64,000 nucleotides of DNA, from the sequence record LC739537.1; one strand, 5' to 3'. Under the pieces are notes generated by a model. That model had not been told where the DNA came from, did not search any database, and saw only the letters and a program-made list of their open reading frames with translations. This document shows, in pieces, positions 1 through 45,587 of the stretch (positions within the stretch are counted from its first letter, which is position 1; the number at the start of each line of letters is the position of its first letter). The stretch is from Escherichia phage phiWec188. The translations under genes were made by a program, and so were the position numbers.

Positions 1-343
1 TGACAACTCTGTTGTTCAACGTGCATTGGAAGTAACTCCTTCCGATCGTGGAGAACTGGAGATCACAGATATCAATCGCAGCTACCTCGAAGACAGGAAG
101 TTACAAGTGGAAGTTCTTGGAAGAGGATTCACTTGGTTGGATACAGGGACACACGCCAGTCTAATGGAAGCAGGTCAATTCGTGCAGACTATTGAGAACT
201 GCCAAGGATTGAAGATTGCGTGCCTGGAAGAGATTGCTTTCAAAAAAGGGTGGATTTCTTTAGAGACTTTGGTGTATCATGGCAACTCATTGAAGAAAAC
301 AGAGTACGGGCAATATCTGTTAAAATTAGCGGAGGGTAAATGA
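1..343 (+). CDS. rmlA: glucose-1-phosphate thymidylyltransferase, C-terminal part (5' end lies outside window)
   Basis: In-frame ORF open to window start; C-terminal sequence pattern typical of RmlA/RfbA; stop overlaps next start (ATGA). Confidence 0.75.
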
Positions 344-900
344 AAATAAAAGAATTAAGTATTCCTGGTCTGGTTGTCTTTAAACCTCAAGTTTACAAAG
401 ATGATCGTGGTTCCTTCACGGAGACGTTTAACGAGAAGATTTACGAAGAGGTTATTGGCAAACAAACGTTTGTTCAGGATAACCATTCATTCTCTACTTT
501 AGGTGTTCTTCGCGGAATGCACTTTCAAGTAAATAACCCGCAAGGTAAGCTTGTACGTTGCACACGAGGTGAAGTTTTTGACGTGGCTGTAGATCTTCGT
601 GAAGGTAGTCCAACCTTCGGACAATGGGAAGGTGTGATTCTTAGTGGGTGTAACAATAAACAGTTGTGGATTCCACCTGGCTTTGCACATGGTTTTGTTG
701 TAACCTCTTATGAAGCCAACTTTGAATACAAGTGCACCAACTACTACGATCCGGCATCTGAACGTAGTTTGTTGTGGAACGATCCTACTGTGAATATTGA
801 TTGGGGTTTTGATATGATTTTCAATGATGAGAATTTTGTACCCATCATTTCGGAAAAGGATGCACAAGCTAAAACACTGAAGGAGCTTATGGGATCATGA
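340..900 (+). CDS. rmlC: dTDP-4-dehydrorhamnose 3,5-epimerase
   Basis: 186 aa; cupin-type RmlC motifs ([36 protein letters not shown]); ATGA overlap with neighbours. Confidence 0.9.
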
Positions 901-1739
901 AAACATATTTAGTATTGGGTGGTAATGGTCAATTAGGTCAGGCACTGCGTAAAGTGGTGCCGGAGAATGTGACTTTGGTGTATCCAGAAAAGCGTGTAGA
1001 TATCACCAGTTTTGAAGCTGTGCGGAAAGCGATCATGGAAACCCCAAATATTAACGGTGTTATCAACTGTGCGGCATACACTGCTGTGGACAAAGCCGAG
1101 ACAGATGTTGATGCAGCTATGGCTGTAAATTTACACGGGGCAGCTAATATTGCTGCCTTCTGTAAGGCTTGGGATATTGACATGGTGCATATTTCTACTG
1201 ACTATGTGTTCAACAGCGATAAACCGTTGTTCCATCAGGATGAACCCAACCCTATCAATGTTTACGGGTTATCTAAAAGTTTGGGTGAAGCTGCTGTTCG
1301 TGGTATCTACCATAAAGCTTTTATTATCCGCACGGCTTCTGTGTATAGCGAGTTTGGTAACAACTTCCTGAAGACTATGGTATCTCGTTACAACGATGGT
1401 CAAAGAAACTTCTCGGTAGTTGCAGATCAAACATCTCGACCAACTTATGCCCCAGATTTGGCTAAGATGATTTTCCAAGTGTTGGAAACAGGATATAACA
1501 CCCGTACTTTGCATTACGCTGGGAACATCACTGTTTCGTGGCACCAGTTCGCAAAAATGATATTGACACGTATGCCTGAATCTGTTATTATACACCCGAC
1601 CTCTGCTGCAACCTATAATTCGGCAGCGATGCGACCAGCAAAGTCTATACTAATTACGTCTGGTTGGAACGAACCTTCAAGCGTCGGACAAGGTATTGAA
1701 GAATCTTTAGCAGTATTACTTAATAAGGAGAGAGCATGA
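897..1739 (+). CDS. rmlD: dTDP-4-dehydrorhamnose reductase-like (RmlD family, NAD(P)-binding)
   Basis: 280 aa; N-terminal Rossmann motif LVLGGNGQLG as in RmlD; follows rmlC in an operon-like arrangement. Confidence 0.7.
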   Translation: MKTYLVLGGNGQLGQALRKVVPENVTLVYPEKRVDITSFEAVRKAIMETPNINGVINCAAYTAVDKAETDVDAAMAVNLHGAANIAAFCKAWDIDMVHISTDYVFNSDKPLFHQDEPNPINVYGLSKSLGEAAVRGIYHKAFIIRTASVYSEFGNNFLKTMVSRYNDGQRNFSVVADQTSRPTYAPDLAKMIFQVLETGYNTRTLHYAGNITVSWHQFAKMILTRMPESVIIHPTSAATYNSAAMRPAKSILITSGWNEPSSVGQGIEESLAVLLNKERA

Positions 1740-1996
1740 ATTTTGTAATTTACGGCAAACCAAATTGCCAGTTCTGTGAAATGTCCAAACAACTCTTAAC
1801 TATGCGTGAAAAAGAGTTTGAATATCTGACATTAGATCAAGATTATGATTTTGAAGTGATGACTCAAGCAGTGATCGCAGCAACAGGAATTGCACCTCGC
1901 ACCTTCCCGCAGATCTTTGTGGAAGAGCTTGGAGCAGTAACCCACGTAGGCGGTTTTACCGAACTGCGTGATTTCATGGCTCAAATTGCGGAGTAA
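1736..1996 (+). CDS. glutaredoxin/thioredoxin-like protein (T4 NrdC-like)
   Basis: 86 aa; CQFC redox motif near N-terminus; C-terminal GGF-x-ELRDF resembles T4 NrdC. Confidence 0.75.
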   Translation: MNFVIYGKPNCQFCEMSKQLLTMREKEFEYLTLDQDYDFEVMTQAVIAATGIAPRTFPQIFVEELGAVTHVGGFTELRDFMAQIAE

Positions 1997-2001
1997 TATA
2001 A

Positions 2002-2151
2002 ATGAAAAGTAAACAGAAACGTAAGATCTTTTCTCGTGCTTTAGCAAACGAGCTTAAGTCCAACACAAAGAAGACGAAACCGAAACGTGAGACTTCTCCT
2101 GAACATTTACTGTTTGACGAACTGGATCACGGAGTAGAGGACGACGAATAA
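2002..2151 (+). CDS. small basic hypothetical protein (49 aa, not in ORF track)
   Basis: ATG 6 nt after upstream stop; Lys/Arg-rich N-terminus, acidic C-terminus; fills an otherwise empty gap. Confidence 0.4.
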   Translation: MKSKQKRKIFSRALANELKSNTKKTKPKRETSPEHLLFDELDHGVEDDE

Positions 2152-2159
2152 AGGAAAAC

Positions 2160-2663
2160 ATGGCTAAAAAAGTAGTAGATGAGTTTGACATGTTGGCTGT
2201 TGATGAAGGACTGAAGCTGACTGTTTACCCAGACACCTTGGGATATTGGACAGTCGGCATTGGACACCTCTTAACTAAAAAGAAAGATAAGGCGGAAGCT
2301 ATTCGTATTCTGGATGCTCTTGTTGGTCGCAAGACTAACGGAGTTATCACAGAGAAAGAAGCCCGTGCTATCTTTGCTGACGATGTTGAAAAGGCGAAAA
2401 AACAGATTAAAAACAGTTCCATTCTTGCCCCAATTTATGATAAGGTGAGTGAAACCCGTAAACTGGCAATCATCAATATGGTGTTCCAGTTGGGGTTAAC
2501 CGGAACGGAAGGCTTTAAAAATAGCTTGACTTTAATCAGTAATTCGTACTATACTCAAGCTGGTAAAAACATGAGAGCCAGTAAATGGTACTCTCAAACG
2601 CCAAACCGTGCAGAACGAGTAATCAAGGTTCTAACATCTGGGACTCTTGATTCTTACAACTAA
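2160..2663 (+). CDS. endolysin, T4 e-type lysozyme (GH24)
   Basis: 167 aa; near-collinear with T4 lysozyme (DEGLKL, GIGHLLTK, NGVIT, INMVFQ, WYSQTPNRA). Confidence 0.93.
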   Translation: MAKKVVDEFDMLAVDEGLKLTVYPDTLGYWTVGIGHLLTKKKDKAEAIRILDALVGRKTNGVITEKEARAIFADDVEKAKKQIKNSSILAPIYDKVSETRKLAIINMVFQLGLTGTEGFKNSLTLISNSYYTQAGKNMRASKWYSQTPNRAERVIKVLTSGTLDSYN

Positions 2664-2690
2664 CAAAGGGGCGCAAGCCCCTTCTATAAG
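2664..2690 (+). terminator. intrinsic terminator/attenuator hairpin between lysozyme and phoH
   Basis: aggggcGCAAgcccct stem-loop followed by tctat; sits just before the phoH RBS. Confidence 0.45.
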
Positions 2691-2700
2691 GAGTGCTACT

Positions 2701-3456
2701 ATGGGAAAAACAGCTACCGCTAAATCACCGCGCCAGAAGTTAGCTTCTAATGCGAAAGTAGAAAGTCGTTATGCTGCAAAAGCAGTTGGAAATGATGACT
2801 ATCGTTTAGATGGGTTTTCACCAGAAGGAGATCAGCAGCAAATCGTTCAAAGTATGATCTGGAATGATCTTACAGTCGTAAATGCTCCAGCAGGGACAGG
2901 CAAGACTTCCGTGACTTTATGGAAAGCTTTGCAGATGCTTCGAGCAGGAGATTTCCGTAAGCTTCTTTTTATTAAAAACCCGACTGAAGTTGGTGATGAT
3001 CAGATTGGTTTCCTTTCGGGAGATAAAACTGATAAACTGGCGGCGCACTACGAATCAACCAAACGAATCTTCCAGCAGTTTATGACTGCAAACAAATTAG
3101 AGAATGATATTGGTTCCGGTAAGATTGAACTTAATATCCCGAACTACCTACTGGGTGCTACCCTGGACAACACTATCGTGATCATTGATGAAGCACAGCT
3201 TATGTCTCCAGAAACATTAAAACTTCTGGTAGAGCGTGCAGGGATCAACACTCATGTTGTTGTTCTTGGAGATGTTCGTCAAACCTACGCTATCAAAAAG
3301 CGTGCAAACGGTTTGAAAGATCTTCTTGACAAAGTTGCCCCTGAAGGTGAAGATGGTGTTCGTGTCCCTCTGGTAGACTTTATCGGTTATGTGCAGTTAA
3401 CCACAGATGACAACAAACGATCTCGTTTGTCTAAGTTCATCACGGAAATTTATTAA
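2701..3456 (+). CDS. phoH: PhoH-like ATPase
   Basis: Walker A (NAPAGTGKTS) and Walker B (IVIIDEAQ) in PhoH arrangement; ATG 2701 preceded by aaggag. Confidence 0.85.
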   Translation: MGKTATAKSPRQKLASNAKVESRYAAKAVGNDDYRLDGFSPEGDQQQIVQSMIWNDLTVVNAPAGTGKTSVTLWKALQMLRAGDFRKLLFIKNPTEVGDDQIGFLSGDKTDKLAAHYESTKRIFQQFMTANKLENDIGSGKIELNIPNYLLGATLDNTIVIIDEAQLMSPETLKLLVERAGINTHVVVLGDVRQTYAIKKRANGLKDLLDKVAPEGEDGVRVPLVDFIGYVQLTTDDNKRSRLSKFITEIY

Positions 3457-3494
3457 TAACAAAAAGCAAGGATGCTTTATTAAAGGGAGGGTCG

Positions 3495-3992
3495 ATGGTA
3501 CAGACAATTATAGATCGGACTGGTATTGATGAATGTTACCAAACTGGGCTTGTGAAGCCTAACGAGTTCCGACAGATTTGCGTGAATCATATTGAGAAAG
3601 AAATTGCACTAACTTTGGAGAACCTTACCCTCCGAGACAAGCTGTCAATGTTTGTGGCTTGGTGTAAAGGTGAAGATTGGTTATTGGCCCATTTTCAAGA
3701 ACTTTCTGATAGTCAAGAAGGCTTATATGAATGTATAATAGGAATAGCTGGCTCCAATCCTGAACTTCTCCATTTGGAAGAAGAAGAGGCGAAGTTACTG
3801 TTCTTAAGCAACATGTTCAATCGTAAAGCATTGCTTGTTCGTGAGTGTAGTGATCTTTTAAATCATCCACTGGCGATCACAAACGAAATACTGGTTGACA
3901 AAGAGACATTACGTGCGATAGACTATCTGCGCAAGTATGTCAACGGCGGGAAAGCAGTTCTTAAAACATTAACAGAGGAGGAAGCAGAATGA
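3495..3992 (+). CDS. hypothetical protein
   Basis: 165 aa ORF; RBS-like aaagggaggg upstream; ATGA overlap with next gene. Confidence 0.5.
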   Translation: MVQTIIDRTGIDECYQTGLVKPNEFRQICVNHIEKEIALTLENLTLRDKLSMFVAWCKGEDWLLAHFQELSDSQEGLYECIIGIAGSNPELLHLEEEEAKLLFLSNMFNRKALLVRECSDLLNHPLAITNEILVDKETLRAIDYLRKYVNGGKAVLKTLTEEEAE

Positions 3993-4675
3993 CTACAATT
4001 ATCGCAACCAAAAACAAGATCCTTAGCGACGGTAAAGTAACTTTCGGTGGTCGTGTAGATTCAACCAATTTCAAGAAAGTACGTAAGATTGGGGATTATC
4101 TCGTAGGTGGCGCAGGGCGTTTAACTTCGGTTTTAGCTTTCTTCCAGTGGTTCGAACAGAACCTGCAATGTGAAGCGGCGCGTGAGGCAGTGCCTGGGTT
4201 GATGATCAGTTCTAACCCTGATCGTGAAGATGAAGAGTTTATTGCTCTCGTTGTTCACCCAGACGGACGTATTTTCCTGCATGAAGGTAATGATCCTACC
4301 CGTGCATACCCAATCGACGAAGAATACTACGCAGTAGGCAGTGGTTCCGATTTTGCGCTCGCAGCACTGGATGGTGGTGCTTCTCCAGAAGCTGCTATGG
4401 AGGTTGCCAAGAAGCGTGACGCATACTCTGGTGGCGAAACATTCGTTGAAGAATTAGACGAGATCATCGAACTGACTGACGAAGATCTCGAAAACTTCAC
4501 CAAACAAGAACTGATCAACCTGCTTAAGTTTGGCGATCCTGCTGGTGAAGAAACTCCTCGTGACGTGGCAGGTGACGAGACGGCAGGAGAAGTTGTAGTA
4601 GAAAAAGACTTGACTTCAAAACCGGAAAATATTAATCTCGTAAATGTAGCGGATTTCGAGAATCCCGCTTCTTAA
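3989..4675 (+). CDS. HslV/proteasome-like Ntn-hydrolase peptidase with acidic C-terminal extension
   Basis: 228 aa; N-terminal MTTII (Thr nucleophile after Met), KKVRK, GGAG, AVGSGSDFALAAL match HslV pattern; acidic tail about 70 aa. Confidence 0.55.
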   Translation: MTTIIATKNKILSDGKVTFGGRVDSTNFKKVRKIGDYLVGGAGRLTSVLAFFQWFEQNLQCEAAREAVPGLMISSNPDREDEEFIALVVHPDGRIFLHEGNDPTRAYPIDEEYYAVGSGSDFALAALDGGASPEAAMEVAKKRDAYSGGETFVEELDEIIELTDEDLENFTKQELINLLKFGDPAGEETPRDVAGDETAGEVVVEKDLTSKPENINLVNVADFENPAS

Positions 4676-4720: not shown

Positions 4721-5158
4721 ATGTTGAACGTTCCTGTTAAATTCGTCGATAGCTGTGTTAATGCTTACCAACAAACTTGTAAACGTGCCTCAAACTGTTT
4801 GCAGTCTTTGATTCAAACGCGGTACGTGATCCAAAAGAAAAGAAAGTGGTTTGGTAAGGATTCTTATAGTGTTAATGCGTTCGGGGAGTATCAACTCCAG
4901 TATGACGATAACATGCAACACATCTTAGAGTTTTTACTGATAAAAGATAAAATCTCCCCTGCGGATTACCAGTTACTTAAATTCTACGATCAGAGTTTGT
5001 CTATTGAGGAAGTTATTCAAGATATCCTTTCTCGTAAGACAGATAAGAACACTGTTGGTATTACAAACTTAGAGATGCAATTGCTCAATGAGATCTTTTT
5101 GTTTGTGGAAGATGAGTCTGTAACTAAGGAGGAGCTTTTAAATGGCTTTAAGCTATGA
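4721..5158 (+). CDS. hypothetical protein
   Basis: 145 aa ORF; gaggag RBS upstream. Confidence 0.5.
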   Translation: MLNVPVKFVDSCVNAYQQTCKRASNCLQSLIQTRYVIQKKRKWFGKDSYSVNAFGEYQLQYDDNMQHILEFLLIKDKISPADYQLLKFYDQSLSIEEVIQDILSRKTDKNTVGITNLEMQLLNEIFLFVEDESVTKEELLNGFKL

Positions 5159-5650
5159 TCGTCCAGAGTCCGATTACTATCCGACTCCGCAAAAAGCGAT
5201 TAACTCGTTATTTAGCATTATTGATTTTAAAAATTTGAAAGAGGAAGGATTTACATTTGCAGAACCGTGTAGAGGACAAGCAGCGGCTATTTACCGTCAC
5301 TTTCCTGAAGGTTCTCAGTATTGTGAGCTTGAAGAAGGTAAAGATTATTTTAGTCACGTATGGGAAAATCGTCCCGACATTATAATCACGAATCCTCCAT
5401 TCAAGCTGGCATTAGAGTTCTTGGAAAAGAGCTTGAAAGAAGCAGACGTGTCAGTCTACCTGCTTCGCCTGGGATTCCTTGAGTCAAAGAAACGTCGAGC
5501 GTTTCATCAAGAAAACCCCCTACGAATTTGATTGTACTCTCCGAACGTCCTTCGTTCGTAGCAGGTGGAACAGATAAGACAGCGTATGCTTGGTACGTAT
5601 ACGATCCAAAACAAATTTTGGGTCTAACTCAACCATTTTATTTCGTTTAA
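5142..5650 (+). CDS. putative DNA N6-adenine methyltransferase, interrupted by an apparent -1 frameshift near 5512-5520
   Basis: YYPTP and IIITNPPF motifs; ORF stops at 5531 but the -1 frame continues (LIVLSERPSFVAGGTDKTAYAWYVYD) to stop at 5650; shift falls in an A4C5 run. Confidence 0.4.
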
Positions 5651-6953: not shown

Positions 6954-7283
6954 ATGGAAATTACTACAGAACAGGCTCTTATCGACGAAGGGCGTAAAAT
7001 CTTAGAGAAGCATTTGGGAGATATACATCAAACCCCTGGCTACTTAGGGTGGCGCATGGTTGAAGCTGTAGATTTCCTTCCTCGCACCAAACAAGACGTT
7101 GAAATGCGTTCTCTGTTTTTGCTTGTTAAGGTAGACGGAGATACGCCTTTCAAGCTGGCAGCTTCACACATTGAGAAGGTGGAGGAGAAAGCTTATTCAG
7201 AGTTTGCCGAACTCGTATTACAGGAGGATCTCGAAGGGAAGGTAAACATTTTTATTTTTCTGGATTTTGAGGAGGAGATATGA
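6954..7283 (+). CDS. hypothetical protein
   Basis: 109 aa ORF; gaggagg RBS upstream. Confidence 0.5.
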   Translation: MEITTEQALIDEGRKILEKHLGDIHQTPGYLGWRMVEAVDFLPRTKQDVEMRSLFLLVKVDGDTPFKLAASHIEKVEEKAYSEFAELVLQEDLEGKVNIFIFLDFEEEI

Positions 7284-8017
7284 TTTTATATAAAGAGATT
7301 ACCGTGGAGCAGGATCAAGACCTCTTCATTATCGGGGACTTGCATGGTTGCTACGATCTTTACTTGAAAGGTAAGAATTATCTTGGTATCCGAGATACAG
7401 ATGTGGTTGTGTCTCTCGGAGATTTGACAGATCGTGGTAAACAAAACTTCAAATGTGTTGTAGAGTTTTGTCGCAAAGAGAATCGTTATGCTCTCTGTGG
7501 TAATCACGAAGATATGATGATTAAAGGCTTACTGGAAGGGGATCGTCGTTACTACGAATGTTGGTATCAGAATGGTGGTCATACGGTATTGGCAGAATGT
7601 GATGAAGAAGGATCTACTCTGCTCGCTACGATGGTTGAGGACAACCCTGTGATTTTGGTTGTGAACTATCGAGGTATGAAGTTAGGGTTTATTCATGGTG
7701 GATATCCTTCCTCTTTTGAATATCTTCCCCTGACAGACATACCACACCTACGTATGAGCAAAGCAAAAGAAGCTACTTTCGCTGAAGCTTTGATGTGGGA
7801 TCGTGATATGGTGGAGTGTGCCAAAGAAGGCATGAAACTTCCGGTTGTTATGGGTGTTGATTATGTGTTTCACGGGCACTCTTATGTGAAAGAACCTTTG
7901 ATCAATGCTAATCGTGTTTATATGGATACTGGGTCTGTTTTCAATAACAACTTAACGTTTGCCTATTTTGATGCAGACGGTGGACTTCAGTTTTATTCAA
8001 CTTTACAGGAGGATTAA
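7280..8017 (+). CDS. Ser/Thr protein phosphatase (lambda-PPase-like metallophosphoesterase)
   Basis: GDLHG, GDLTDRG, GNHE motifs in canonical order; 245 aa. Confidence 0.85.
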   Translation: MILYKEITVEQDQDLFIIGDLHGCYDLYLKGKNYLGIRDTDVVVSLGDLTDRGKQNFKCVVEFCRKENRYALCGNHEDMMIKGLLEGDRRYYECWYQNGGHTVLAECDEEGSTLLATMVEDNPVILVVNYRGMKLGFIHGGYPSSFEYLPLTDIPHLRMSKAKEATFAEALMWDRDMVECAKEGMKLPVVMGVDYVFHGHSYVKEPLINANRVYMDTGSVFNNNLTFAYFDADGGLQFYSTLQED

Positions 8018-13224: not shown

Positions 13225-13719
13225 ATGTTTCAAGTAGAAATCCATGTGCACAACAGTTGTTCAAATTGCGAAACTTGTGGTTACAATAGTTCAACCATGA
13301 TCACTATTAGCGGAGACTTAGGACATGCCAAGTTTGGCGAAGTCGCAAGCTGCTTCAGCGGAGAGGATGCAGATTGGCATGATATTGCTTTGTGGCTATG
13401 CGGAAGACTGAATGTAAATTGTAAAGACTTCCCTGAACTGTTGAGCCGAAATCTTGTCGATAGTCGGGAACAAGCCTACAATATTTATGCCGCTTCTGTT
13501 TATGTTGATCATAAATGGGTAGAAGATGAAGAAGCTGAACGTTTGCTACGCCTCTACTATGAAGCAGAGGAAGCTTATGATAACTATTACAGCATGTCCA
13601 ACATCCTGCGTTTGTTTGCAGAGTTTGATATTTACTTTGAAGTGAGTTATTCTGAAGATGAAGTGTATGATTTTGATGACGATGATTACGAGGAGGATGA
13701 AGAATGCCAAGACGATTAA
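13225..13719 (+). CDS. hypothetical protein with Cys-rich N-terminus and acidic C-terminus
   Basis: 164 aa; gaggagg RBS; CSNCETCG motif; C-terminus DFDDDDYEEDEECQDD. Confidence 0.5.
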   Translation: MFQVEIHVHNSCSNCETCGYNSSTMITISGDLGHAKFGEVASCFSGEDADWHDIALWLCGRLNVNCKDFPELLSRNLVDSREQAYNIYAASVYVDHKWVEDEEAERLLRLYYEAEEAYDNYYSMSNILRLFAEFDIYFEVSYSEDEVYDFDDDDYEEDEECQDD

Positions 13720-14507
13720 TAGTGATCAGCGGCGCTGGTCTAAGCGCCGATAGCGGTGTACAAACATTCCGTACAGAAACAGAGAGTGGAAAAGCATTAT
13801 GGGACGAGTACGATTTAGAGGAGGTTTGTAATATTGGGGCATTCCAGGCAGGTTATCGTAGACGTACATGTCCCGATTTACCTGTTATCGGAGGTGAGGA
13901 TGAGGAAGGATACAACCTCTACAACAAGACCCATGATTTCTATAACAAGCGTCGTATAGAGTTGGATAATATAGATCCAAACGCTGCACATCGTCTGATT
14001 GCTCGTTTATACTCAGAGTATGGCGCTGATCGTATTTTAAACATTACCACTAACGTAGACGATCTTTTGGAACGTGCTGGTGTTGTTCACGAAGATGTTC
14101 TGCATGTGCATGGCTACCTACCAGAAATTGTAGTGGATCGGAAGTTTATTAAAGAAATCGGTTATGCAAGTGTGGATGTGGATAAGTACGATTACGTGAA
14201 ACCTAACGTTGTCTTCTTCGGGGAATCTGCTCCGCTGTACACAGAGATGTACCATATGCTCGATAATCTCACATCTCAGGATATGGTGATTGTTGTAGGT
14301 TGCTCTAATCAAGTGATCAACTTCAACTGGGAGTTGTTCCCAGCCCTCAATACAGGAACAAAGATGGTCGTAGTTAATCCTGGGGTTAATTACGAAGAAA
14401 CACTTCTCTATGAAGATCGTGGAGTTTTTGTTTACCGAGAAAAAGCTGCAACAGCCTTCAGTAATGAAGGTTTCATTAAAATGATCGAAGACCACTTAAA
14501 CAAATAA
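13704..14507 (+). CDS. Sir2-family NAD-dependent protein deacylase/ADP-ribosyltransferase homolog
   Basis: Sirtuin motifs GAGLSADSGVQTFR, catalytic HG (VLHVHGY), VVFFGE; 267 aa. Confidence 0.8.
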   Translation: MPRRLIVISGAGLSADSGVQTFRTETESGKALWDEYDLEEVCNIGAFQAGYRRRTCPDLPVIGGEDEEGYNLYNKTHDFYNKRRIELDNIDPNAAHRLIARLYSEYGADRILNITTNVDDLLERAGVVHEDVLHVHGYLPEIVVDRKFIKEIGYASVDVDKYDYVKPNVVFFGESAPLYTEMYHMLDNLTSQDMVIVVGCSNQVINFNWELFPALNTGTKMVVVNPGVNYEETLLYEDRGVFVYREKAATAFSNEGFIKMIEDHLNK

Positions 14508-38057: not shown

Positions 38058-38291
38058 CTATTTTTTATAAAATTTTTCTGCTGTGATATTCTTCCCTGTA
38101 GGCTTAACCGCTTGCAAGATCTTATCATGCGCCGGACGTCCAAAGGAATAAGATCCATAAACGGTAAACCAATAATCCCCGTCAGGTTGAACGGTTACGG
38201 CGGCGTAGGGTGTACCTCTCTCATTATCACCGATAAAGTGTGAAACATTGCCGTTAACGTTCGATTTAGTGCTTTTAATTTGTCCGATCAT
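38058..38291 (-). CDS. hypothetical protein
   Basis: 77 aa ORF; followed upstream by promoter-hairpin cassette at 38310-38370. Confidence 0.5.
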   Translation of the reverse strand: MIGQIKSTKSNVNGNVSHFIGDNERGTPYAAVTVQPDGDYWFTVYGSYSFGRPAHDKILQAVKPTGKNITAEKFYKK

Positions 38292-38309
38292 GGTGTTATT
38301 CCTATATTA

Positions 38310-38370
38310 GACGGGAAACATTCCCGCCCTACGTGATAAATAATAATATAAGCGTGATCCGGTGTCAATA
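38310..38370 (-). promoter_or_regulatory. promoter plus 5' hairpin cassette (copy 1 of 24)
   Basis: Minus strand: TTGACA, 17 bp, TATTAT, then cgggaaTGTTtcccg hairpin, then RBS/ATG of 38058..38291. Confidence 0.5.
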
Positions 38371-38542
38371 GGTAGAATTGTAAAGATTTGATAGTTTATC
38401 TCTTTGATGTTTTGTTGTTTGATAGGTGTTAGCTATCAATATATAGCGGGGTCGTCCGGTGATTACCTCCCCCGTTGCCAGTGCCGCCCGTTCAATAAGC
38501 ATAACAAAAAACAGGACAAAAACAAGCCCTGTTTTGTAAAGA

Positions 38543-38746
38543 TTAGATGATCTGCATATCCTCCACGATAATTTCTAATTTCCAAACAAGATGATCTAAG
38601 CTCCCTGATAAAAATGATTCCGATACATAACCGCCATCGGACACCGTAGCAAGGATCTCGCCATTTGCTTGCTCTTTGATTTGAACATCCAGGCGGTTAG
38701 CCTTTGCTTTATTCAGGACGGCGATCAGGCGGTTAGCTGTAGTCAT
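38543..38746 (-). CDS. hypothetical protein
   Basis: ORF 38543..38779; ATG 38746 lies after the hairpin and ggaagg RBS. Confidence 0.5.
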   Translation of the reverse strand: MTTANRLIAVLNKAKANRLDVQIKEQANGEILATVSDGGYVSESFLSGSLDHLVWKLEIIVEDMQII

Positions 38747-38765
38747 GGTGTTTTTCCTTCCAGTT

Positions 38766-38826
38766 GTGAGCGGCACCATTGCCGCCCTACGAAATACATC
38801 TTACACTATCCGGCACATCATGCAAG
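38766..38826 (-). promoter_or_regulatory. promoter plus 5' hairpin cassette
   Basis: Minus strand: TTGCAT, 16 bp, TGtaAGAT, then ggcggcAATGgtgccgc hairpin. Confidence 0.5.
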
Positions 38827-38831
38827 CTATT

Positions 38832-39023
38832 TTATACTTCGTCACCTATATAATCAGATCTGTTCTTCTCTGTCATACGCTTAAGCAATTCCTGCATATG
38901 GCTTATAGCTTGCAATGTGTCTTCTTCCAGGCTTGAATCCACATAATCAGGATCATTCTTTACCTTGCTATGGTTGTGATAACGCAACGCTGCTAATACC
39001 TTTCTAACTTGTTCTGCATTCAT
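38832..39023 (-). CDS. hypothetical protein
   Basis: 63 aa ORF; aggag RBS. Confidence 0.45.
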   Translation of the reverse strand: MNAEQVRKVLAALRYHNHSKVKNDPDYVDSSLEEDTLQAISHMQELLKRMTEKNRSDYIGDEV

Positions 39024-39035
39024 TTTTATTACTCC

Positions 39036-39170
39036 TTAAAACCAGGTGCCAACCGTTTCCAATAGGTCACTGACTACCAGAACAACACCGATTAGCACAT
39101 ATTTAACCAGGAAGGGGATTAGCGCCAGCGTTGCTACTATGATCCCCATTGTCATGATTACCTTTCTCAT
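39036..39170 (-). CDS. small membrane peptide (44 aa, not in ORF track)
   Basis: Hydrophobic (GIIVATLALIPFLVKYVLIGVVLVV); start overlaps stop of 39167..39457 (ATGA). Confidence 0.35.
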   Translation of the reverse strand: MRKVIMTMGIIVATLALIPFLVKYVLIGVVLVVSDLLETVGTWF

Positions 39171-39457
39171 TGTTGGCGGTTTACGTAAGCTTTACCGTTT
39201 ACGGTCATCGGTATGGCCTCAAGGTCTGGATCTTCCTTAAGGTCGCGTGCAAGCTCACCGCACCGGACACCCTCGAATCCGTGGTATTCTGTTTCCCCGT
39301 CCTTAAAAGTTTTAGCGGCAAGGCATAGGCGATAATTAACCCCGATCCGGTTTACTGCGTTGATATCGGTTAACGTGATCGATTCAGGCAAATCGTTAGC
39401 CATTACAGGCGCGTTAATACCAACAACCAGGGCAACTACTGCGATCATCTTTTTCAT
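39167..39457 (-). CDS. small secreted protein (signal peptide)
   Basis: MKKMIAVVALVVGINAPVMA signal-peptide-like N-terminus; 96 aa. Confidence 0.5.
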   Translation of the reverse strand: MKKMIAVVALVVGINAPVMANDLPESITLTDINAVNRIGVNYRLCLAAKTFKDGETEYHGFEGVRCGELARDLKEDPDLEAIPMTVNGKAYVNRQQ

Positions 39458-39508
39458 GTTGTCTATCCTCTTCCTATTGCGTTTAATGGGGCGTTGCCGC
39501 CCCGCTGA

Positions 39509-39733
39509 TTAATTACGTTGGCTGTTTTCTACTATCGACTTTAAAATAAAGTCAGTTACGCCCTTTGTGTCATCCGGCGGGAAGTTATCAGCATAGCACC
39601 AGGCATAAGCGCCATCAACTGGAAGCGGGAAGATATGCACGCTTAGATCCCCATAATCATATTCAGTTATTTCTACCTTGAGATCCGACAATTCAGCCAG
39701 TTTAATAGCTTGTAACATTCTAACAATACTCAT
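39509..39733 (-). CDS. hypothetical protein
   Basis: 74 aa ORF; preceded by ggggcg..cgcccc hairpin element. Confidence 0.5.
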   Translation of the reverse strand: MSIVRMLQAIKLAELSDLKVEITEYDYGDLSVHIFPLPVDGAYAWCYADNFPPDDTKGVTDFILKSIVENSQRN

Positions 39734-39772
39734 AATCTTTTCCTTTCTGATAGTGGGGCGTTGCCGCCCTTT

Positions 39773-40018
39773 TTAGAATTGACGCGTTACGCGATCGGTG
39801 TTTTCTTCCTTTACAACCTTACCTGTTGCTACCATTTCGCTGATTTTTTCATCGTTGATAATGTTGTTATTCTCTTTGATCCAGGTCCAACGATTACCCA
39901 TCAAAGTATTCCCTTTTAACGCATAATACCAAATGTTGTTAGGCATTTTGATCCAAGCCATACCGCGCGAATTTTTCGGGTCGTGGTAGATATTGCCAAT
40001 TTTAGTTGTCTGGTACAT
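39773..40018 (-). CDS. hypothetical protein
   Basis: 81 aa ORF; cassette at 40042-40098 upstream. Confidence 0.5.
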   Translation of the reverse strand: MYQTTKIGNIYHDPKNSRGMAWIKMPNNIWYYALKGNTLMGNRWTWIKENNNIINDEKISEMVATGKVVKEENTDRVTRQF

Positions 40019-40041
40019 GATGTTTTACCTTTTTCCAGGAA

Positions 40042-40098
40042 GCGGGAACTATTCCCGCCCTACGTGGTAAATATTATCATATTGACGATCCGTGTCAA
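40042..40098 (-). promoter_or_regulatory. promoter plus 5' hairpin cassette
   Basis: TTGACA, then TGATAATAT-type -10, then gcgggaATAGTtcccgc hairpin. Confidence 0.5.
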
Positions 40099-40118
40099 TA
40101 GTTTTTTGGAGTTTTTAC

Positions 40119-40520
40119 TTACAGGCCCAAGATAGCCCGTGCATCGTTACGCTGTTTAGTCTCAGTCATGATCATATTTAAAATGGTCGGATTAATATAA
40201 CCTTTCTCCATAGCTTCGCGGACTGGTACATCATAAGCACCGAAACCAGTGCGAACGATACGCACATCATTCAGATTAGTGTTATAGATCCCGCCTAAAT
40301 CAACCGACTGGAAAACGGCATCAACACTATATTCAGTGTTGCCATCGTTGACGTTTTCGATCTCAATGTTGCGAGACACCGCCCAACGTTTACAGCCTCC
40401 AATCAGGTAGCATTGTTCCTTTGTCAGATTACCATTGGAAACCGCATATTTCAGGGCTTCAGCGCCGAAAGTTTTAGCAATGTTAACAACGTCAGTATAA
40501 GAAAGGATCGTAATGTTCAT
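40119..40520 (-). CDS. hypothetical protein
   Basis: 133 aa ORF; cassette at 40541-40597 upstream. Confidence 0.55.
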   Translation of the reverse strand: MNITILSYTDVVNIAKTFGAEALKYAVSNGNLTKEQCYLIGGCKRWAVSRNIEIENVNDGNTEYSVDAVFQSVDLGGIYNTNLNDVRIVRTGFGAYDVPVREAMEKGYINPTILNMIMTETKQRNDARAILGL

Positions 40521-40540
40521 GGTTATAACTCCAAATGGTG

Positions 40541-40597
40541 AGCGGCACCATTGCCGCCCTACGTGGTAAATATTATCACACTGGTGATCTGTGTCAA
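40541..40597 (-). promoter_or_regulatory. promoter plus 5' hairpin cassette
   Basis: Minus strand TTGACA ... -10 ... ggcggcAATGgtgccgc ... RBS. Confidence 0.5.
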
Positions 40598-40622
40598 TAC
40601 TATTTATTCAATATAAATAAAA

Positions 40623-40847
40623 TTATGATGTGCGCTCAATTATGATAATGGTCTGTGGGATCTCGTTTTCTGCCACTATCAGGGCTTTTTTCTGCGTGAT
40701 AGTTATTTTAACACGTTGCAACGATGCGGTAAAGTCTTTCATTTCGTTATGTGCGGACTTGCTGCAATGCCAGATCTCAGGCTTACCAACTTGTAAGCCG
40801 CGTAAAAATTCCGTTTTGCCTGCTTTGTTCGTGAACATTTGTTTCAC
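40623..40847 (-). CDS. hypothetical protein
   Basis: 74 aa ORF. Confidence 0.45.
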   Translation of the reverse strand: MKQMFTNKAGKTEFLRGLQVGKPEIWHCSKSAHNEMKDFTASLQRVKITITQKKALIVAENEIPQTIIIIERTS

Positions 40848-40848
40848 C

Positions 40849-40953
40849 TTAACCGATACCGTGAGAAGATAGGATCATATTAGCCATAGTTGCAACCACT
40901 CCAACCGATAACGCCAGGCCAACTATTGCAACCGTGAAAATTTTCTCTAACAT
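40849..40953 (-). CDS. small membrane peptide (34 aa; start uncertain)
   Basis: ORF 40849..41052; ATG 40953 preceded by gaggg and located after the hairpin element. Confidence 0.3.
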   Translation of the reverse strand: MLEKIFTVAIVGLALSVGVVATMANMILSSHGIG

Positions 40954-41036
40954 GATGCTACCCTCTTTAATGGGCGTTGCCTTATTGCCCCGCCCTACGT
41001 GATACACTTTACCAGAAAACAAAATACTGTCAAGAT

Positions 41037-41174
41037 TTATTTTACTTCCCAAACGGAAAATTCACTACCTGGCGGGATCATTCTTTTAATCTTGTTTGCT
41101 GCTGCTACCAGGTCCACGGCTTGCACTGTAATAATATAACCAATTGTCGAGGCTGTTGCATTGAAAGTTTTCAT
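41037..41174 (-). CDS. small hypothetical protein (45 aa, not in ORF track)
   Basis: ATG 41174 preceded by gaggg; cassette hairpin at 41193-41210 just upstream. Confidence 0.35.
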   Translation of the reverse strand: MKTFNATASTIGYIITVQAVDLVAAANKIKRMIPPGSEFSVWEVK

Positions 41175-41232
41175 TATATTACCCTCACCATCGGCGGCAC
41201 CATTGCCGCCCTACAAGATGAATACTACGCGC

Positions 41233-41415
41233 TTACTTTGCTGTTGTCAACAAGGGGCGAAAAAACTTTTTGATCTGGCTTGCTGTTAGGCGCATATCTG
41301 CTTTGAGCGTTGCCAGGCGATAAGCCTTACCCTTAATCAGTTTATGGTGTCCGGTGCCGTTGCCGATGATAACATCAATTTCACACAATACACGGGAAGA
41401 ATCAATCTTTTTCAT
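41233..41415 (-). CDS. hypothetical protein
   Basis: 60 aa ORF. Confidence 0.45.
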   Translation of the reverse strand: MKKIDSSRVLCEIDVIIGNGTGHHKLIKGKAYRLATLKADMRLTASQIKKFFRPLLTTAK

Positions 41416-41463
41416 CTTGTTACCTTTCTTGTTATGGGGCGCTTGTCGCCCCTGGTTTATGGT

Positions 41464-41649
41464 TTATTTGACTATGTGACGATCATTATATTCAGTGTAA
41501 AACTCGCAACCATCGTCACGACTATCAAGTTTAACAATGTAACCAGTTTGATAACGTTCAATAGATACCATTGCATAAAACTTACCATTCAGGATATTTC
41601 TAACCAGATCGCCTTTTACCAATTCTTTCGTTTTCTTGTAAGTAGTCAT
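41464..41649 (-). CDS. hypothetical protein
   Basis: ORF 41464..41700; ATG 41649 downstream of hairpin. Confidence 0.5.
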   Translation of the reverse strand: MTTYKKTKELVKGDLVRNILNGKFYAMVSIERYQTGYIVKLDSRDDGCEFYTEYNDRHIVK

Positions 41650-41669
41650 GATGTTTTCTCTTCTGTTAG

Positions 41670-41726
41670 GCGGGGCGCTTGTCGCCCCTATGTGATACAT
41701 CTTATCAGGTTGATTCAGCTTGTCAA
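41670..41726 (-). promoter_or_regulatory. promoter plus 5' hairpin cassette (stem variant ggggcg/cgcccc)
   Basis: TTGACA, spacer, TGATAAGAT, then ggggcgACAAGcgcccc hairpin. Confidence 0.5.
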
Positions 41727-41727
41727 A

Positions 41728-41907
41728 CTATTTGTTAGCCGGATTATATGCCAGGACCGCGCCACTTGCTTTCACGCTTTCCGCTTCATAGTTGCGCAGA
41801 TCGTTTTCTGTAAGATTGAGCGCGATCACTTCCTCGATCTCAATACCAGTGGCAAGGGCGATCTCTTTAATGATGTTTGATGATCTGATAACGTTTACTG
41901 TTTTCAT
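41728..41907 (-). CDS. hypothetical protein
   Basis: ORF 41728..41964; ATG 41907 chosen (MKTVNV...). Confidence 0.45.
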   Translation of the reverse strand: MKTVNVIRSSNIIKEIALATGIEIEEVIALNLTENDLRNYEAESVKASGAVLAYNPANK

Positions 41908-41917
41908 GGTGTGCACC

Positions 41918-42037
41918 TTATAAGATGATTGATAAGATAGTGATAACGAAAGCGATAACACCAACGGCGATCGTAGTCTTACGCCCTTCGGATACTGCCG
42001 GATTCTCTACCGTGTATTCTACTGTGTATTTGTTCAT
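41918..42037 (-). CDS. small membrane peptide (39 aa, not in ORF track)
   Basis: ATG 42037 preceded by gagagga; C-terminal TM segment IAVGVIAFVITILSII. Confidence 0.3.
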   Translation of the reverse strand: MNKYTVEYTVENPAVSEGRKTTIAVGVIAFVITILSIIL

Positions 42038-42136
42038 TGTGTTATCCTCTCGCTTGCTTTGGGAACTATTCCCGCCGCCCTATGAATTAAATATACACTA
42101 TCTCAAAATGATTGCAAACCTTTTTCTAAATTATTT

Positions 42137-42421
42137 TTATGCAGTAAATAAACCATCGTTTACAACGGCGGCGATGATCTCCCGTGCCATTGATTCAGGG
42201 AACGGGGCGCTATAGTCCTGGCTTGTCTCGTCGCTGTCTGTTACCCAATGATAAGCCAACGAGTAAAAGCCTTTACTCCCTGTTTTCAGTGAAACGATGA
42301 TCACTCGGTTAAGTCCATCGGTAAACGTTGCCGTTAATGTGCTATCATCTTGCGTCATGTTGGACAAGTAAGCGGCATCATTAACCAGGGAAAACAGTAG
42401 CACCGTGTTAGCTTTAACCAT
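42137..42421 (-). CDS. hypothetical protein
   Basis: ORF 42137..42451; ATG 42421 after hairpin. Confidence 0.5.
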   Translation of the reverse strand: MVKANTVLLFSLVNDAAYLSNMTQDDSTLTATFTDGLNRVIIVSLKTGSKGFYSLAYHWVTDSDETSQDYSAPFPESMAREIIAAVVNDGLFTA

Positions 42422-42440
42422 AGTTTGATCCTCAAACGAG

Positions 42441-42497
42441 CGCGGTACCATTGCCGCCCTACGTGATACATCTTATCAGGTCTGATTATGGTGTCAA
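42441..42497 (-). promoter_or_regulatory. promoter plus 5' hairpin cassette
   Basis: TTGACA, 16 bp, TGATAAGAT, gtatcacgtag, then ggcggcAATGgtaccgc hairpin. Confidence 0.55.
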
Positions 42498-42503
42498 CCA
42501 CTT

Positions 42504-42689
42504 TTAAAGATATTTTATACTGATAACATTTTCAGGTTTAACCTGGTTATGATAAGCATCAATGTAAATCAAACCATCATTAGATAAGCCCAGGATCACG
42601 CCTTGCGCAATAAATCCGTATTCGTCGCGGTAACGGGCTGCTACTTTGTTCGTTGCGTTGTAGGCGGTTTTAATCTCGTTTAAGGTCAT
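42504..42689 (-). CDS. hypothetical protein
   Basis: 61 aa ORF. Confidence 0.45.
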   Translation of the reverse strand: MTLNEIKTAYNATNKVAARYRDEYGFIAQGVILGLSNDGLIYIDAYHNQVKPENVISIKYL

Positions 42690-42713
42690 GTGCTGTTATC
42701 CTCTCGTTAGATA

Positions 42714-42745
42714 TAAGAAAGGGCGCTATTTGCGCCCTTGTTTTG
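42714..42745 (-). terminator. intrinsic terminator (minus strand)
   Basis: gggcgcAAATAgcgccc hairpin with flanking A/T runs; third copy of this terminator type. Confidence 0.5.
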
Positions 42746-42892
42746 TTAGTCTTCCAGGTCCAGCCATGCACGTTTATCGGTGCGGTCGCGCTTAGTCTTG
42801 TTGCGCTTGTCGCCCTTGCGGACCACTTCTTCATTCCACGCTGCGCGAGTTTTGGAAGATTGGATTTTTTCGGCGCGATTAGATGTATTCAT
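42746..42892 (-). CDS. small basic protein (48 aa, not in ORF track)
   Basis: ATG 42892 preceded by agagga and the cassette at 42914-42972; replaces shadow plus ORF 42743..42982. Confidence 0.4.
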   Translation of the reverse strand: MNTSNRAEKIQSSKTRAAWNEEVVRKGDKRNKTKRDRTDKRAWLDLED

Positions 42893-42913
42893 GATGTTTC
42901 CTCTTTTTGTTGT

Positions 42914-42972
42914 GAGCGGCACCATTGCCGCCCTACGTGTTTAAATTTACTTTATTGTTTGATGCCTGTCAA
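42914..42972 (-). promoter_or_regulatory. promoter plus 5' hairpin cassette
   Basis: TTGACA ... -10 ... ggcggcAATGgtgccgc. Confidence 0.5.
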
Positions 42973-42988
42973 CTACTTTTAAAACTTT

Positions 42989-43342
42989 TTATTCGTGGGA
43001 AAGTGCAAGGATCACTCCTGCAAGGTATAGCCAATAGTTTTCCCTTTCTTTCTGGATCTTGCTTTCGCTGCTACGCTCGCTAATGTATCCCCAGGATGTT
43101 AACAACCGATCTACTTCCCAATATTCGAAAGCGATATTGATATCTGACGGTAAACCTTGTAACCATGAGGCTATTGCTCTGATAACGTTATGATTGTAGT
43201 ATTCTTGGTTATAGGGATACCAGTACTCATTCTTAAAACGTCGCATCAATTCCGCGATCTTCTCTTTCTCTTCTGTGATGCTATACTCGCTATAATCAAT
43301 TGAGGCCAGAATATAAAGTTTAATTGCATTTTGTGCTTTCAT
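42989..43342 (-). CDS. hypothetical protein
   Basis: 117 aa ORF; cassette upstream at 43362-43420. Confidence 0.55.
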   Translation of the reverse strand: MKAQNAIKLYILASIDYSEYSITEEKEKIAELMRRFKNEYWYPYNQEYYNHNVIRAIASWLQGLPSDINIAFEYWEVDRLLTSWGYISERSSESKIQKERENYWLYLAGVILALSHE

Positions 43343-43361
43343 GGTGTCTCTCTTCTGTTGT

Positions 43362-43420
43362 GAGCGGCACCATTGCCGCCCTACGTGTTACATCTTACCG
43401 GATTTTTAAAACTTGTCAAT
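43362..43420 (-). promoter_or_regulatory. promoter plus 5' hairpin cassette
   Basis: TTGACA, spacer, TAAGAT, then canonical hairpin. Confidence 0.5.
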
Positions 43421-43641
43421 CATTTTTCTACTATCATTTGATATCCTGTTTCAATGTTAGTAAACACCGTGATCCCGTCCTGGCGTTCACTCATAAGGAA
43501 GCAAGGCGCTAACATCCTTCCTACTTCCTTGCACTCGTTATAAGCGGCGGTGATATCTCCTGCTGCTTTGTCTTCGGTGGTGAATGTATCGTTCACGTAA
43601 ACTTGACCAGCGACAACGGCGACAATAGCGAAAGTGATCAT
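43420..43641 (-). CDS. hypothetical protein
   Basis: 73 aa ORF. Confidence 0.45.
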   Translation of the reverse strand: MITFAIVAVVAGQVYVNDTFTTEDKAAGDITAAYNECKEVGRMLAPCFLMSERQDGITVFTNIETGYQMIVEK

Positions 43642-43721
43642 GATGTTTTCTCTCTTTGTGATAAGTGGTTTCTCTTCTCAATAGCGCCTATTGAGCGGGG
43701 CGCTATTACGAAGGGCTAACC

Positions 43722-43889
43722 TTATTTGTTACGGCTTAACGTGCCCAAGTTATCAGCATGACGCAGACCAGGGAAGATCCACGCGCCTGATGTATCTTTT
43801 ACAGGGGCTTTAAGCGTAGCGCCCAGGTTGGCGGCGTTAACTTTACGTGCAACGTTGCGAGCGGCTTCACGGGTAGTAAAAGTAATCAT
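43722..43889 (-). CDS. small hypothetical protein (55 aa, not in ORF track)
   Basis: ATG 43889 preceded by agaggaaaa; hairpin variant ggcggtgg..ccgccgcc upstream. Confidence 0.4.
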   Translation of the reverse strand: MITFTTREAARNVARKVNAANLGATLKAPVKDTSGAWIFPGLRHADNLGTLSRNK

Positions 43890-43978
43890 GATGTTTTCCT
43901 CTTCTCTTTGTTAGGCGGTGGACCATTCCGCCGCCTTGATGTAATACAGTTTACTTTATTTTATGGGGATTGCAAGCT

Positions 43979-44194
43979 TTAATTTAAGATTGTTAGTGTA
44001 AAATTGTAATCCCCTGCCTGATATACTACCTTGTTGCTAAAAGTTCCAACACGTTTCACATTGCAATATATACCCATAACACTTTTTACATCTTTGATGT
44101 TCTTAACGCCTGTAATGTCTTTATTGAAATAATCGTGATCGGAAAATAAAACTCGACTTGCATTTTTTAACAGTGTGCGGATATTAGCCATCAT
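43979..44194 (-). CDS. hypothetical protein
   Basis: ORF 43979..44224; ATG 44194 after hairpin. Confidence 0.5.
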   Translation of the reverse strand: MMANIRTLLKNASRVLFSDHDYFNKDITGVKNIKDVKSVMGIYCNVKRVGTFSNKVVYQAGDYNFTLTILN

Positions 44195-44213
44195 GATAAT
44201 CTCTCTTCTTGCT

Positions 44214-44270
44214 GGCGGCACCATTGCCGCCCTACGTAATACAGTTTACTCTTTTTCTTTCCCGTGTCAA
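44214..44270 (-). promoter_or_regulatory. promoter plus 5' hairpin cassette
   Basis: TTGACA ... ggcggcAATGgtgccgcc. Confidence 0.5.
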
Positions 44271-44279
44271 CAATCTTTT

Positions 44280-45566: not shown

Positions 45567-45587
45567 GATGATAACCTTTTTATTGTT

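Follow-up and report, generated by a model that had tools for sequence, protein, structure and literature searches.

What leads some 130 sequenced lytic coliphages to retain, under purifying selection, four enzymes of a sugar pathway and four glycosyltransferases (GTs)? The puzzle is posed by a 64,000-nucleotide stretch of Escherichia phage phiWec188 (LC739537.1), hereafter the window, in whose first 1,739 positions three overlapping genes encode the end of RmlA, an RmlC and an RmlD, enzymes of the deoxythymidine diphosphate (dTDP)-L-rhamnose pathway. The product of this rml cassette may feed a block of GT genes elsewhere in the phage genome, which would build a short glycan with rhamnose in it; virion proteins are its most probable acceptor. 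We hold this reading tentatively, at somewhat less than an even chance, and set out below the evidence that bears on it and on its rivals.

All three genes lie on the plus strand. The rmlA fragment (glucose-1-phosphate thymidylyltransferase; 2..343) comprises the last 113 codons and the stop codon and is truncated by the window edge, rmlC (dTDP-4-dehydrorhamnose 3,5-epimerase; 340..900) encodes 186 residues, and rmlD (dTDP-4-dehydrorhamnose reductase; 897..1739) encodes 280. A six-frame listing of open reading frames (ORFs), together with inspection of the sequence, places ATGA start/stop overlaps at 340-343, 897-900 and 1736-1739, the first two joining the rml genes to one another and the third joining rmlD to a glutaredoxin gene, which is thereby translationally coupled to the cassette. 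The rmlA fragment matches TIGR01207 (154.5 bits, E 3.1e-45) over model positions 176-286 of 286, as well as PF00483. RmlC scores 243.6 bits against TIGR01221 (equivalog cutoff 155.75; model positions 1-175 of 176) and 234.8 bits against PF00908 (E 5.8e-70), and RmlD passes TIGR01214 narrowly (244.5 bits, cutoff 224.05) and matches PF04321 (E 7.9e-74). The run of three ATGA-linked genes described in the sequence-only reading, an earlier interpretation of the same stretch made without database searches, is thus borne out by ORF coordinates and family scores.

Bases 1-4000 of the window match Escherichia phage phiWec190 (LC739539.1) at 100% identity. This lytic myovirus of 150.7 kb belongs to the genus Phapecoctavirus in the subfamily Stephanstirmvirinae, and over 16 kb its record and the window differ by a single base in a run of five or six cytosines. 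The phiWec190 record continues the locus upstream with nrdA, nrdB, four small ORFs, rmlB (named rffG) and a full-length rmlA. RmlB (L001 10464-11456, outside the window) scores 429.2 bits against TIGR01181 (cutoff 365.1) and the 292-residue RmlA 464 bits against TIGR01207 (cutoff 360.65). The dTDP-rhamnose pathway is complete, with the gene order rmlB-rmlA-rmlC-rmlD, and positions 1-1739 of the window are the distal two-thirds of this cassette. The earlier statement that no rmlB occurs in the window is true of the window, but the window starts inside rmlA and the absence is merely an edge effect; the upstream check that had been proposed finds rmlB immediately upstream in the identical record. 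The gene order was rightly described as unlike that of the usual bacterial operon, being B-A-C-D in the phage and rfbB-D-A-C in E. coli (by record feature names).

Are these enzymes intact, and what would they make? The best solved relative of the phage RmlC is that of P. aeruginosa (2ixi; E 6e-61, aligned over the whole length), and phage residues H61, K70, Y130 and D174 align with His65, Lys74, Tyr134 and Asp171 of the P. aeruginosa enzyme, of which we take His65 and Tyr134 to be the catalytic pair and Lys74 and Asp171 to be supporting residues. In RmlD, the GxxGxxG motif for NAD(P)H (G8, G11 and G14) and the catalytic triad (T101, Y123 and K127) are invariant among 30 sequences from phages and bacteria whose identities span 39-95%. 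Among solved structures, the phage RmlD is closest to B. anthracis RfbD (3sc6, 172 bits), with Salmonella RmlD at 95 bits, and the enterobacterial RmlD model NF007440 gives it just 107 against a cutoff of 308; the phage enzyme is nearer to the Bacillus/Bacteroidota type than to the Salmonella type. When phiWec190 is compared with the 97.7% identical phage PsgM04F, the ratio of non-synonymous to synonymous change (pN/pS) is 0.10 for rmlB, 0.04 for rmlA, 0.26 for rmlC and 0.12 for rmlD, and the rml genes are under purifying selection. That the phage would make a dTDP-6-deoxy-L-hexose is well supported by this gene content. In the infected cell, the four Rml enzymes would turn glucose-1-phosphate and dTTP into dTDP-L-rhamnose or dTDP-6-deoxy-L-talose, the reductase product being predicted as either L-rhamnose or its 4-epimer, since RmlD and Tll-type reductases are not separable by sequence.

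Could the genes nonetheless be stray host DNA or a decaying remnant, a recently acquired and unused O-antigen fragment? Nothing but the bacterial origin of the enzyme families speaks for this explanation, which we count as refuted. The cassette is found in approximately 131 of 132 related phage genomes, pN/pS ranges from 0.04 to 0.26 and the catalytic residues are invariant. At 0.40-0.43, the G+C content of the rml genes brackets the window value of 0.42, and their third-position G+C equals that of neighbouring phage genes. Among 5426 complete E. coli genomes, none carries the cassette; the best DNA match reaches 65.8% identity over at most 38% of it, with nothing over rmlD, and no close E. 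coli allele exists for genes that are, moreover, translationally coupled to phage genes. The approximately 55 best RmlD relatives (47-95% identity) lie mostly on large phage-type contigs of about 150 kb, many others being short fragments, and the next matches below this phage-type group are Bacteroidota proteins at 42-44% identity. The phage RmlD forms a clade of its own, about 43% identical to the nearest cellular proteins, and the rml cassette is, judging by its composition and distribution, an old, ameliorated phage gene set. The immediate surroundings agree with the sequence-only reading, which had placed phage genes directly downstream and had argued against stray host DNA: glutaredoxin (PF00462), e-type lysozyme (PF00959) and PhoH (PF02562) families are matched downstream, and upstream lie nrdA, nrdB and further phage genes. 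The O-antigen cluster and the prophage boundary that would have refuted that reading are both absent. The phage shares its four enzyme families and their catalytic residues with bacterial RmlABCD systems (E. coli and Salmonella rfbBDAC; P. aeruginosa rmlBDAC). Unlike those operons, its cassette runs B-A-C-D, sits in an nrd operon of the phage, where an ATGA overlap couples it to a glutaredoxin gene, and has no O-antigen glycosyltransferase, flippase or polymerase genes nearby.

How did sugar genes come to lie among those of nucleotide metabolism? In rV5 (Vequintavirus) and Klebsiella phage BIS47 (Mydovirus), the order is thyX-nrdA-nrdB-grx-...-phoH without rml genes. Because nrdB adjoins grx in both, the cassette of the Stephanstirmvirinae is read as an insertion into the nrd operon; an ancestor of the subfamily would have received it between nrdB and the glutaredoxin gene. 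It follows that the site within a DNA metabolism region, from which the guess of DNA glycosylation in print arose, need carry no functional meaning. Klebsiella phage phi1_175008 has rmlC-rmlD alone at the nrdB-grx site, and phage ESCO37 is reported without rmlA and rmlB (PMC10269720). Between phiWec190 and PsgM04F, synonymous divergence (pS) is 0.36-0.42 in rmlB-rmlA and 0.04-0.05 in rmlC-rmlD, and the 3' half of rmlB plus rmlA (L001 10790-11990, overlapping window 1-343) is 80-90% identical to PsgM04F, its flanks 96-99%. The high pS and the drop in identity mark the rmlB-rmlA half as a recombination patch. DNA similar to this half occurs in all 5426 of the E. coli genomes, in agreement with the universal presence in E. 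coli of rffG and rffH of the enterobacterial common antigen (ECA) pathway. We conclude that RmlC-RmlD is the conserved core and RmlB-RmlA an exchangeable add-on, exchangeable because every E. coli already makes dTDP-4-keto-6-deoxyglucose for ECA. Its own RmlC and RmlD would secure the last two steps for the phage regardless of host serotype.

The same division of the cassette bears on an explanation in which the sugar itself is a by-product. RmlC and RmlD would drain dTDP-4-keto-6-deoxyglucose from ECA, and dTDP-rhamnose, an allosteric inhibitor of RmlA, would inhibit host RmlA/RffH, so that synthesis of the phage's own receptor is lowered. ECA is the shared primary receptor, and some relatives retain only rmlC-rmlD, as such metabolic diversion would have it. 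Most members, this phage included, nevertheless encode RmlA and RmlB under purifying selection, and these two enzymes raise the supply of the intermediate instead of depleting it. The rV5-type phages use the same receptor without any rml genes, and a co-inherited GT block would be left unexplained. We consider this explanation highly improbable.

Which enzymes, then, might use the sugar? The position and annotation of the GT block were taken from the near-identical PsgM04F genome, in whose part corresponding to the window no glycosyltransferase is annotated. Four GT genes lie approximately 12 kb past the window end, on the same strand and about 75 kb from rmlD, between an endolysin gene and genes for primase/helicase and DNA polymerase. 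They encode an enzyme labelled GT4 here (187 residues, a small GT-A-like enzyme with an RDTDT motif), a GT-A (227 residues, DDD motif) and two paralogous GT-B enzymes of 315 residues each. All four are under strong purifying selection (GTB1 differs by 16 synonymous codons and 1 non-synonymous codon), and none has a transmembrane segment, the maximum Kyte-Doolittle value over a 19-residue window being 1.37. In phage-collection records, the lineage marker NrdB is matched at 80% identity or more in 132, RmlC at 60% or more in 131 and GT-A at 60% or more in 126; rV5-type phages are absent from the RmlC and GT-A matches among the matches listed. That the dTDP-sugar feeds the phage's own GT cassette is moderately supported. 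The sugar would most likely be used by the four soluble GTs, and the block would be expected to assemble from it the short glycan proposed above, with virion proteins as the most probable acceptor.

What these enzymes resemble was sought at the level of sequence and of fold. A sequence search of the three GT types against solved structures gave nothing usable. The AlphaFold model of GT-A (predicted local distance difference test, pLDDT, 87.7) matched GT-A folds, namely STIV A197, vaccinia H3 and TarP, and that of GT-B (pLDDT 95.3) matched the GT4-type folds of GlgM, PglA, SdgB and TarM. The only other relatives of GT-A among cultured phages are right-end GTs of approximately 166 mycobacteriophage genomes, at about 25% identity and E of about 1e-7. 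PHROGs files the GTs under 'moron / host takeover'.

One further match of GT-A, to the PHROG of beta-glucosyl-HMC-alpha-glucosyltransferase (phrog_842; HMC, hydroxymethylcytosine), turns attention from proteins to DNA. The phage GTs might move the dTDP-sugar onto a hydroxylated pyrimidine in phage DNA and so protect it from nucleases, a guess published by Olsen et al. (2020; PMC7552041). The match is partial (E 3e-7, residues 18-80, 63 residues), and a second, to the TET-associated GT family (TAGT), stays under its cutoff at 18.4 bits (27.5 required). The rml cassette sits in a nucleotide-metabolism operon, the GT block stands beside replication genes, and a phage nucleotide-sugar pathway joined to several GTs has a precedent in acting on DNA (PMC13326640). 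Against such an acceptor, phi92-like sister phages with the same genes are 'exceptionally susceptible' to restriction-modification in plating data (PMC8594841). The sole thymidylate-synthase-like gene is ThyX (PF02511), which rV5 also has without rml or GT genes, and an annotation-level check of PsgM04F finds no ThyA-type hydroxymethylase, 5-hydroxy-dCMP synthase or TET enzyme. The location next to nrdB is accounted for by the insertion, small temperate phages carry GT cassettes among head genes with no base-modifying enzyme nearby, and the T4 alpha- and beta-glucosyltransferases are not in the top 50 GT-B fold matches. The known systems of this kind are the glucosyl-HMC of T4 and the poly-arabinosyl-5-hydroxycytosine of RB69/DLP3, the latter made with a phage uridine diphosphate (UDP)-arabinose pathway (PMC13326640). 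Both resemble the present case in having a phage nucleotide-sugar pathway and several GTs; both need a ThyA-family enzyme that makes the hydroxylated pyrimidine and give restriction-resistant DNA, neither of which is found or reported for this phage group. Glycosylation of DNA therefore strikes us as improbable.

Returning to virion proteins as the acceptor, we consider where homologous GT genes are found in other phages. Prophages of Enterobacter huaxiensis and Serratia carry them in the order GT4 / GT-A / GT-B, 39-47% identical to the phiWec190 enzymes, and a Pseudomonas silvicola prophage has GT-A and GT-B homologues; all three prophages have these genes flanked by lysis genes on one side and by the small terminase gene on the other. 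At least 483 GT-B relatives are present in IMG/VR, and 79 loci were annotated with our own profiles. Above approximately 36% identity to GT-B, nearly all of the loci also have GT-A and most have GT4, in three gene orders. The trio is set between an HK97-type major capsid gene and a head-tail connector gene in 10 loci; in one of them, L049, the stop codon of GT4 overlaps the first codon of the connector gene. Portal and capsid genes flank the trio in L056, at least eight further loci, six or more of them from IMG/VR, have it immediately before terminase, and in the rV5-supergroup myoviruses it stands beside primase/helicase. Its G+C content tracks that of each carrier phage, from 0.35 to 0.67. 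By these criteria, the GT block is, in all appearance, a mobile cassette, and genomic context, namely its usual place in morphogenesis operons of lytic as well as temperate phages, suggests that it may glycosylate a virion component.

A second feature of these loci concerns the sugar donor. In three lineages, a nucleoside diphosphate (NDP)-hexose 4,6-dehydratase-like short-chain dehydrogenase/reductase (SDR) is encoded between GT4 and GT-A, namely in the Enterobacter prophage (L007), in L018 (a myovirus contig of 135 kb) and in L031; their SDRs score 171-180 bits against TIGR01181 and have STDE and YxxxK motifs, and the copies of the Enterobacter prophage and of L018 are 55% identical to each other. 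An SDR inside the cassette links the GTs to 6-deoxyhexose chemistry independently of the Stephanstirmvirinae. From this material we frame a broader proposal, namely that the phapecoctaviruses and phi92-like coliphages coat virion proteins with a rhamnose glycan by means of their own RmlBACD and a GT4/GT-A/GT-B cassette that has spread through hundreds of Gram-negative phages, usually in head-morphogenesis operons. We regard this larger claim as possible, though rather doubtful.

Two of the loci hold neighbours of interest in their own right. In the P. silvicola prophage, a gene at L006 8871-9302 immediately precedes the GT-A/GT-B pair and the terminase genes and encodes a 143-residue protein that has a Big_2 Ig-like domain. 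Since domains of the Ig-like type typically decorate virion surfaces, this protein is a candidate acceptor. A GT-B homologue of 42% identity on a Trinickia symbiotica contig (L014 8001-9026) stands in a non-prophage setting and adjoins a gene for a 1128-residue invasin/intimin-like protein and unannotated genes, and the family could there act on a bacterial surface protein.

Several observations weigh against a glycan on virion proteins. Co-occurrence of rml and GT genes in the Stephanstirmvirinae amounts to one phylogenetic event and is merely suggestive. Most of the phages that carry the cassette lack any sugar-nucleotide gene within 10 kb of it, which leaves room for a donor other than a 6-deoxyhexose. 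The phiWec190 GT block itself lies in the replication module, away from the head genes. No Ser/Thr-rich C-terminal tails occur on the capsid, decoration and tail-tube proteins of PsgM04F, the only ones inspected, and homology to Che8 gp108-110 was rejected (BLASTP E 0.22, 1.7 and 2.2). The fold matches of the models are generic for GT-A and GT4 enzymes and are silent on the acceptor. Inserts in head-tail operons can also be host-acting 'morons'. Finally, we infer both the link from rml to the GTs and that from the GTs to an acceptor.

The question of morons leads to the host envelope as a target. The sequence-only reading had listed remodelling of host surface polysaccharide and glycosylation of phage DNA or of proteins as possible roles, which is a fair list, but one whose members are not equally likely. 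In envelope remodelling, the sugar and the GTs would alter the lipopolysaccharide (LPS) core, O-antigen or ECA on the cytoplasmic side, which could stop superinfection or prevent progeny from adhering to debris. Rhamnose belongs to the normal make-up of enterobacterial surface glycans, genes inserted into the head-tail operons of temperate phages often turn out to be morons directed at the host, and the PHROGs category of the GTs fits such a role. ECA is the primary receptor of these phages and the LPS core their secondary receptor (PMC8594841). The phage is strictly lytic, however, and in the temperate homologues the cassette belongs to a late operon, once translationally coupled to the connector gene, and so would not be expressed in lysogens. 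No flippase, polymerase, ligase or Gtr-type membrane protein stands beside the GTs, which themselves have no membrane segment. The cassette G+C is fully ameliorated in phages of 35% to 67% G+C, unlike that of recent morons, and late export of a glycolipid would presumably alter little of the existing surface. We judge envelope remodelling unlikely. The classical form of such remodelling, Gtr-type lysogenic conversion, belongs to temperate phages with GtrA/GtrB/GtrC or an O-acetyltransferase by the attachment site; here we deal with a lytic 150-kb myovirus, with no integrase annotated in PsgM04F and four GTs lacking any membrane segment.

Are there viruses in which a glycan on the particle is established? 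Soluble GTs of mycobacteriophages are said to decorate capsid and tail proteins in lytic growth, and the resulting virion glycans reportedly shield the particle from antibodies. Che8-type systems share with the present phages the use of phage-encoded soluble GTs, and cluster-F GTs other than those of Che8 match GT-A weakly. The two differ in that Ser/Thr-rich C-terminal tails bear the glycans in the Che8 type, whereas the capsid and tube proteins of the phiWec190 type (seen in PsgM04F) have no such tails. They differ, too, in the donor: mycobacteriophages use host sugar donors, whereas this phage brings a donor pathway of its own. The mycobacteriophage cases (Che8, Corndog and Myrna) are those of Freeman et al. 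(2023, Cell Host Microbe), cited via PMC11256854. Giant viruses offer a second comparison, with the UDP-L-rhamnose pathway of Mimivirus R141/L780 and the rhamnosyltransferases of chlorovirus PBCV-1 A064R (PMC9614988). Like the reading proposed for the coliphages, they encode enzymes that make activated L-rhamnose as well as transferases that place it on their own capsid or fibril glycans. Theirs is a eukaryotic-type two-enzyme UDP pathway with unrelated transferases and eukaryotic hosts, whereas the phage has the bacterial four-enzyme dTDP pathway.

How much of this is new? Olsen et al. (2020; PMC7552041) described the dTDP-rhamnose pathway of Phapecoctavirus and phi92-like phages, Maffei et al. 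(2021) and Nicolas et al. (2023) refer to it, and the phiWec190 GenBank record already names rffG, rfbC and rfbD. That these phages have the pathway is therefore no new observation, and its enzymes are unremarkable members of their families. The three reports concern the same locus and the same phage group as ours; they offer no function past the guess of DNA glycosylation, and no insertion site, rmlCD/rmlBA split or link to a GT cassette. Our literature search for a functional study of phage rml genes found none. In the literature searched, the analysis of the insertion site and the division into an rmlCD core and an rmlBA accessory part appear to be undescribed, as do the three-enzyme GT cassette and its ties to head-morphogenesis operons and to 4,6-dehydratases.

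Together, these analyses predict rhamnose-containing glycans on coliphage virions. Phapecoctaviruses and phi92-like coliphages are widely used in therapeutic cocktails. A virion glycan, if real, would bear on antibody recognition, clearance and stability of phages common in therapeutic collections. It would point to a glycosylation module widely distributed among phages of Gram-negative bacteria and, as a virion glycosylation system, would have no described precedent in phages with such hosts. Should the sugar instead be placed on DNA or on the host envelope, a new rhamnose-based mechanism of counter-defence or exclusion would follow.

Scans of the window for tRNAs and Rfam families found none, and a search for promoters and terminators near the cassette yielded no more of them than shuffled sequence does and is thus uninformative on transcription units. 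The glutaredoxin coupled to rmlD (1736..1996, plus strand, 86 residues) is NrdC/GrxA-like (PF00462, E 1.3e-10) and provides context outside the pathway. It is followed by the T4-e-type lysozyme gene (2160..2663) and by the PhoH gene, which ends at 3456. The phage has two lysozyme-type genes, the T4-e-like one beside grx at window 2160-2663 and another at L005 5012-5533, which immediately precedes the GT block and is called an endolysin in the PsgM04F annotation. Public records label the window gene variously as lysozyme, baseplate hub/tail lysozyme or hypothetical.

The single difference from phiWec190 falls at window 5516-5520, where the window has C5 and the phiWec190 record C6. It splits a 169-residue ORF (window 5142-5650), which has an NPPF motif and is N6-adenine methyltransferase-like, into 5142..5531 and 5528..5650; either a sequencing error or a homopolymer frameshift variant is possible. 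Further downstream of the cassette, host-takeover-type genes occur at window 3989-4675, 7280-8017 and 13704-14507, and comprise an HslV/proteasome-like peptidase (weak PF00227 match), a Ser/Thr phosphatase and a Sir2/CobB-like NAD-dependent deacylase. Over the region, the records OR584014.1 (PsgM04F), MG065650.1 and other 'Campylobacter' phages, and OP562383.1 (Acinetobacter phage ABPW7) are 78-98% identical to Stephanstirmvirinae coliphages, which makes their Pseudomonas, Campylobacter and Acinetobacter host labels look doubtful. Finally, window 38288-48229 contains at least 12 copies of an intergenic element of about 75 nucleotides, in which a GC-rich hairpin (GCGGCACCATTGCCGC) precedes CCTACGTGATACATCTTA and TGTCAA. 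On the minus strand, the element reads TTGACA, about 17 nucleotides, TAAGAT and then the hairpin, and it resembles a repeated early promoter and 5' stem-loop cassette preceding many small early ORFs.

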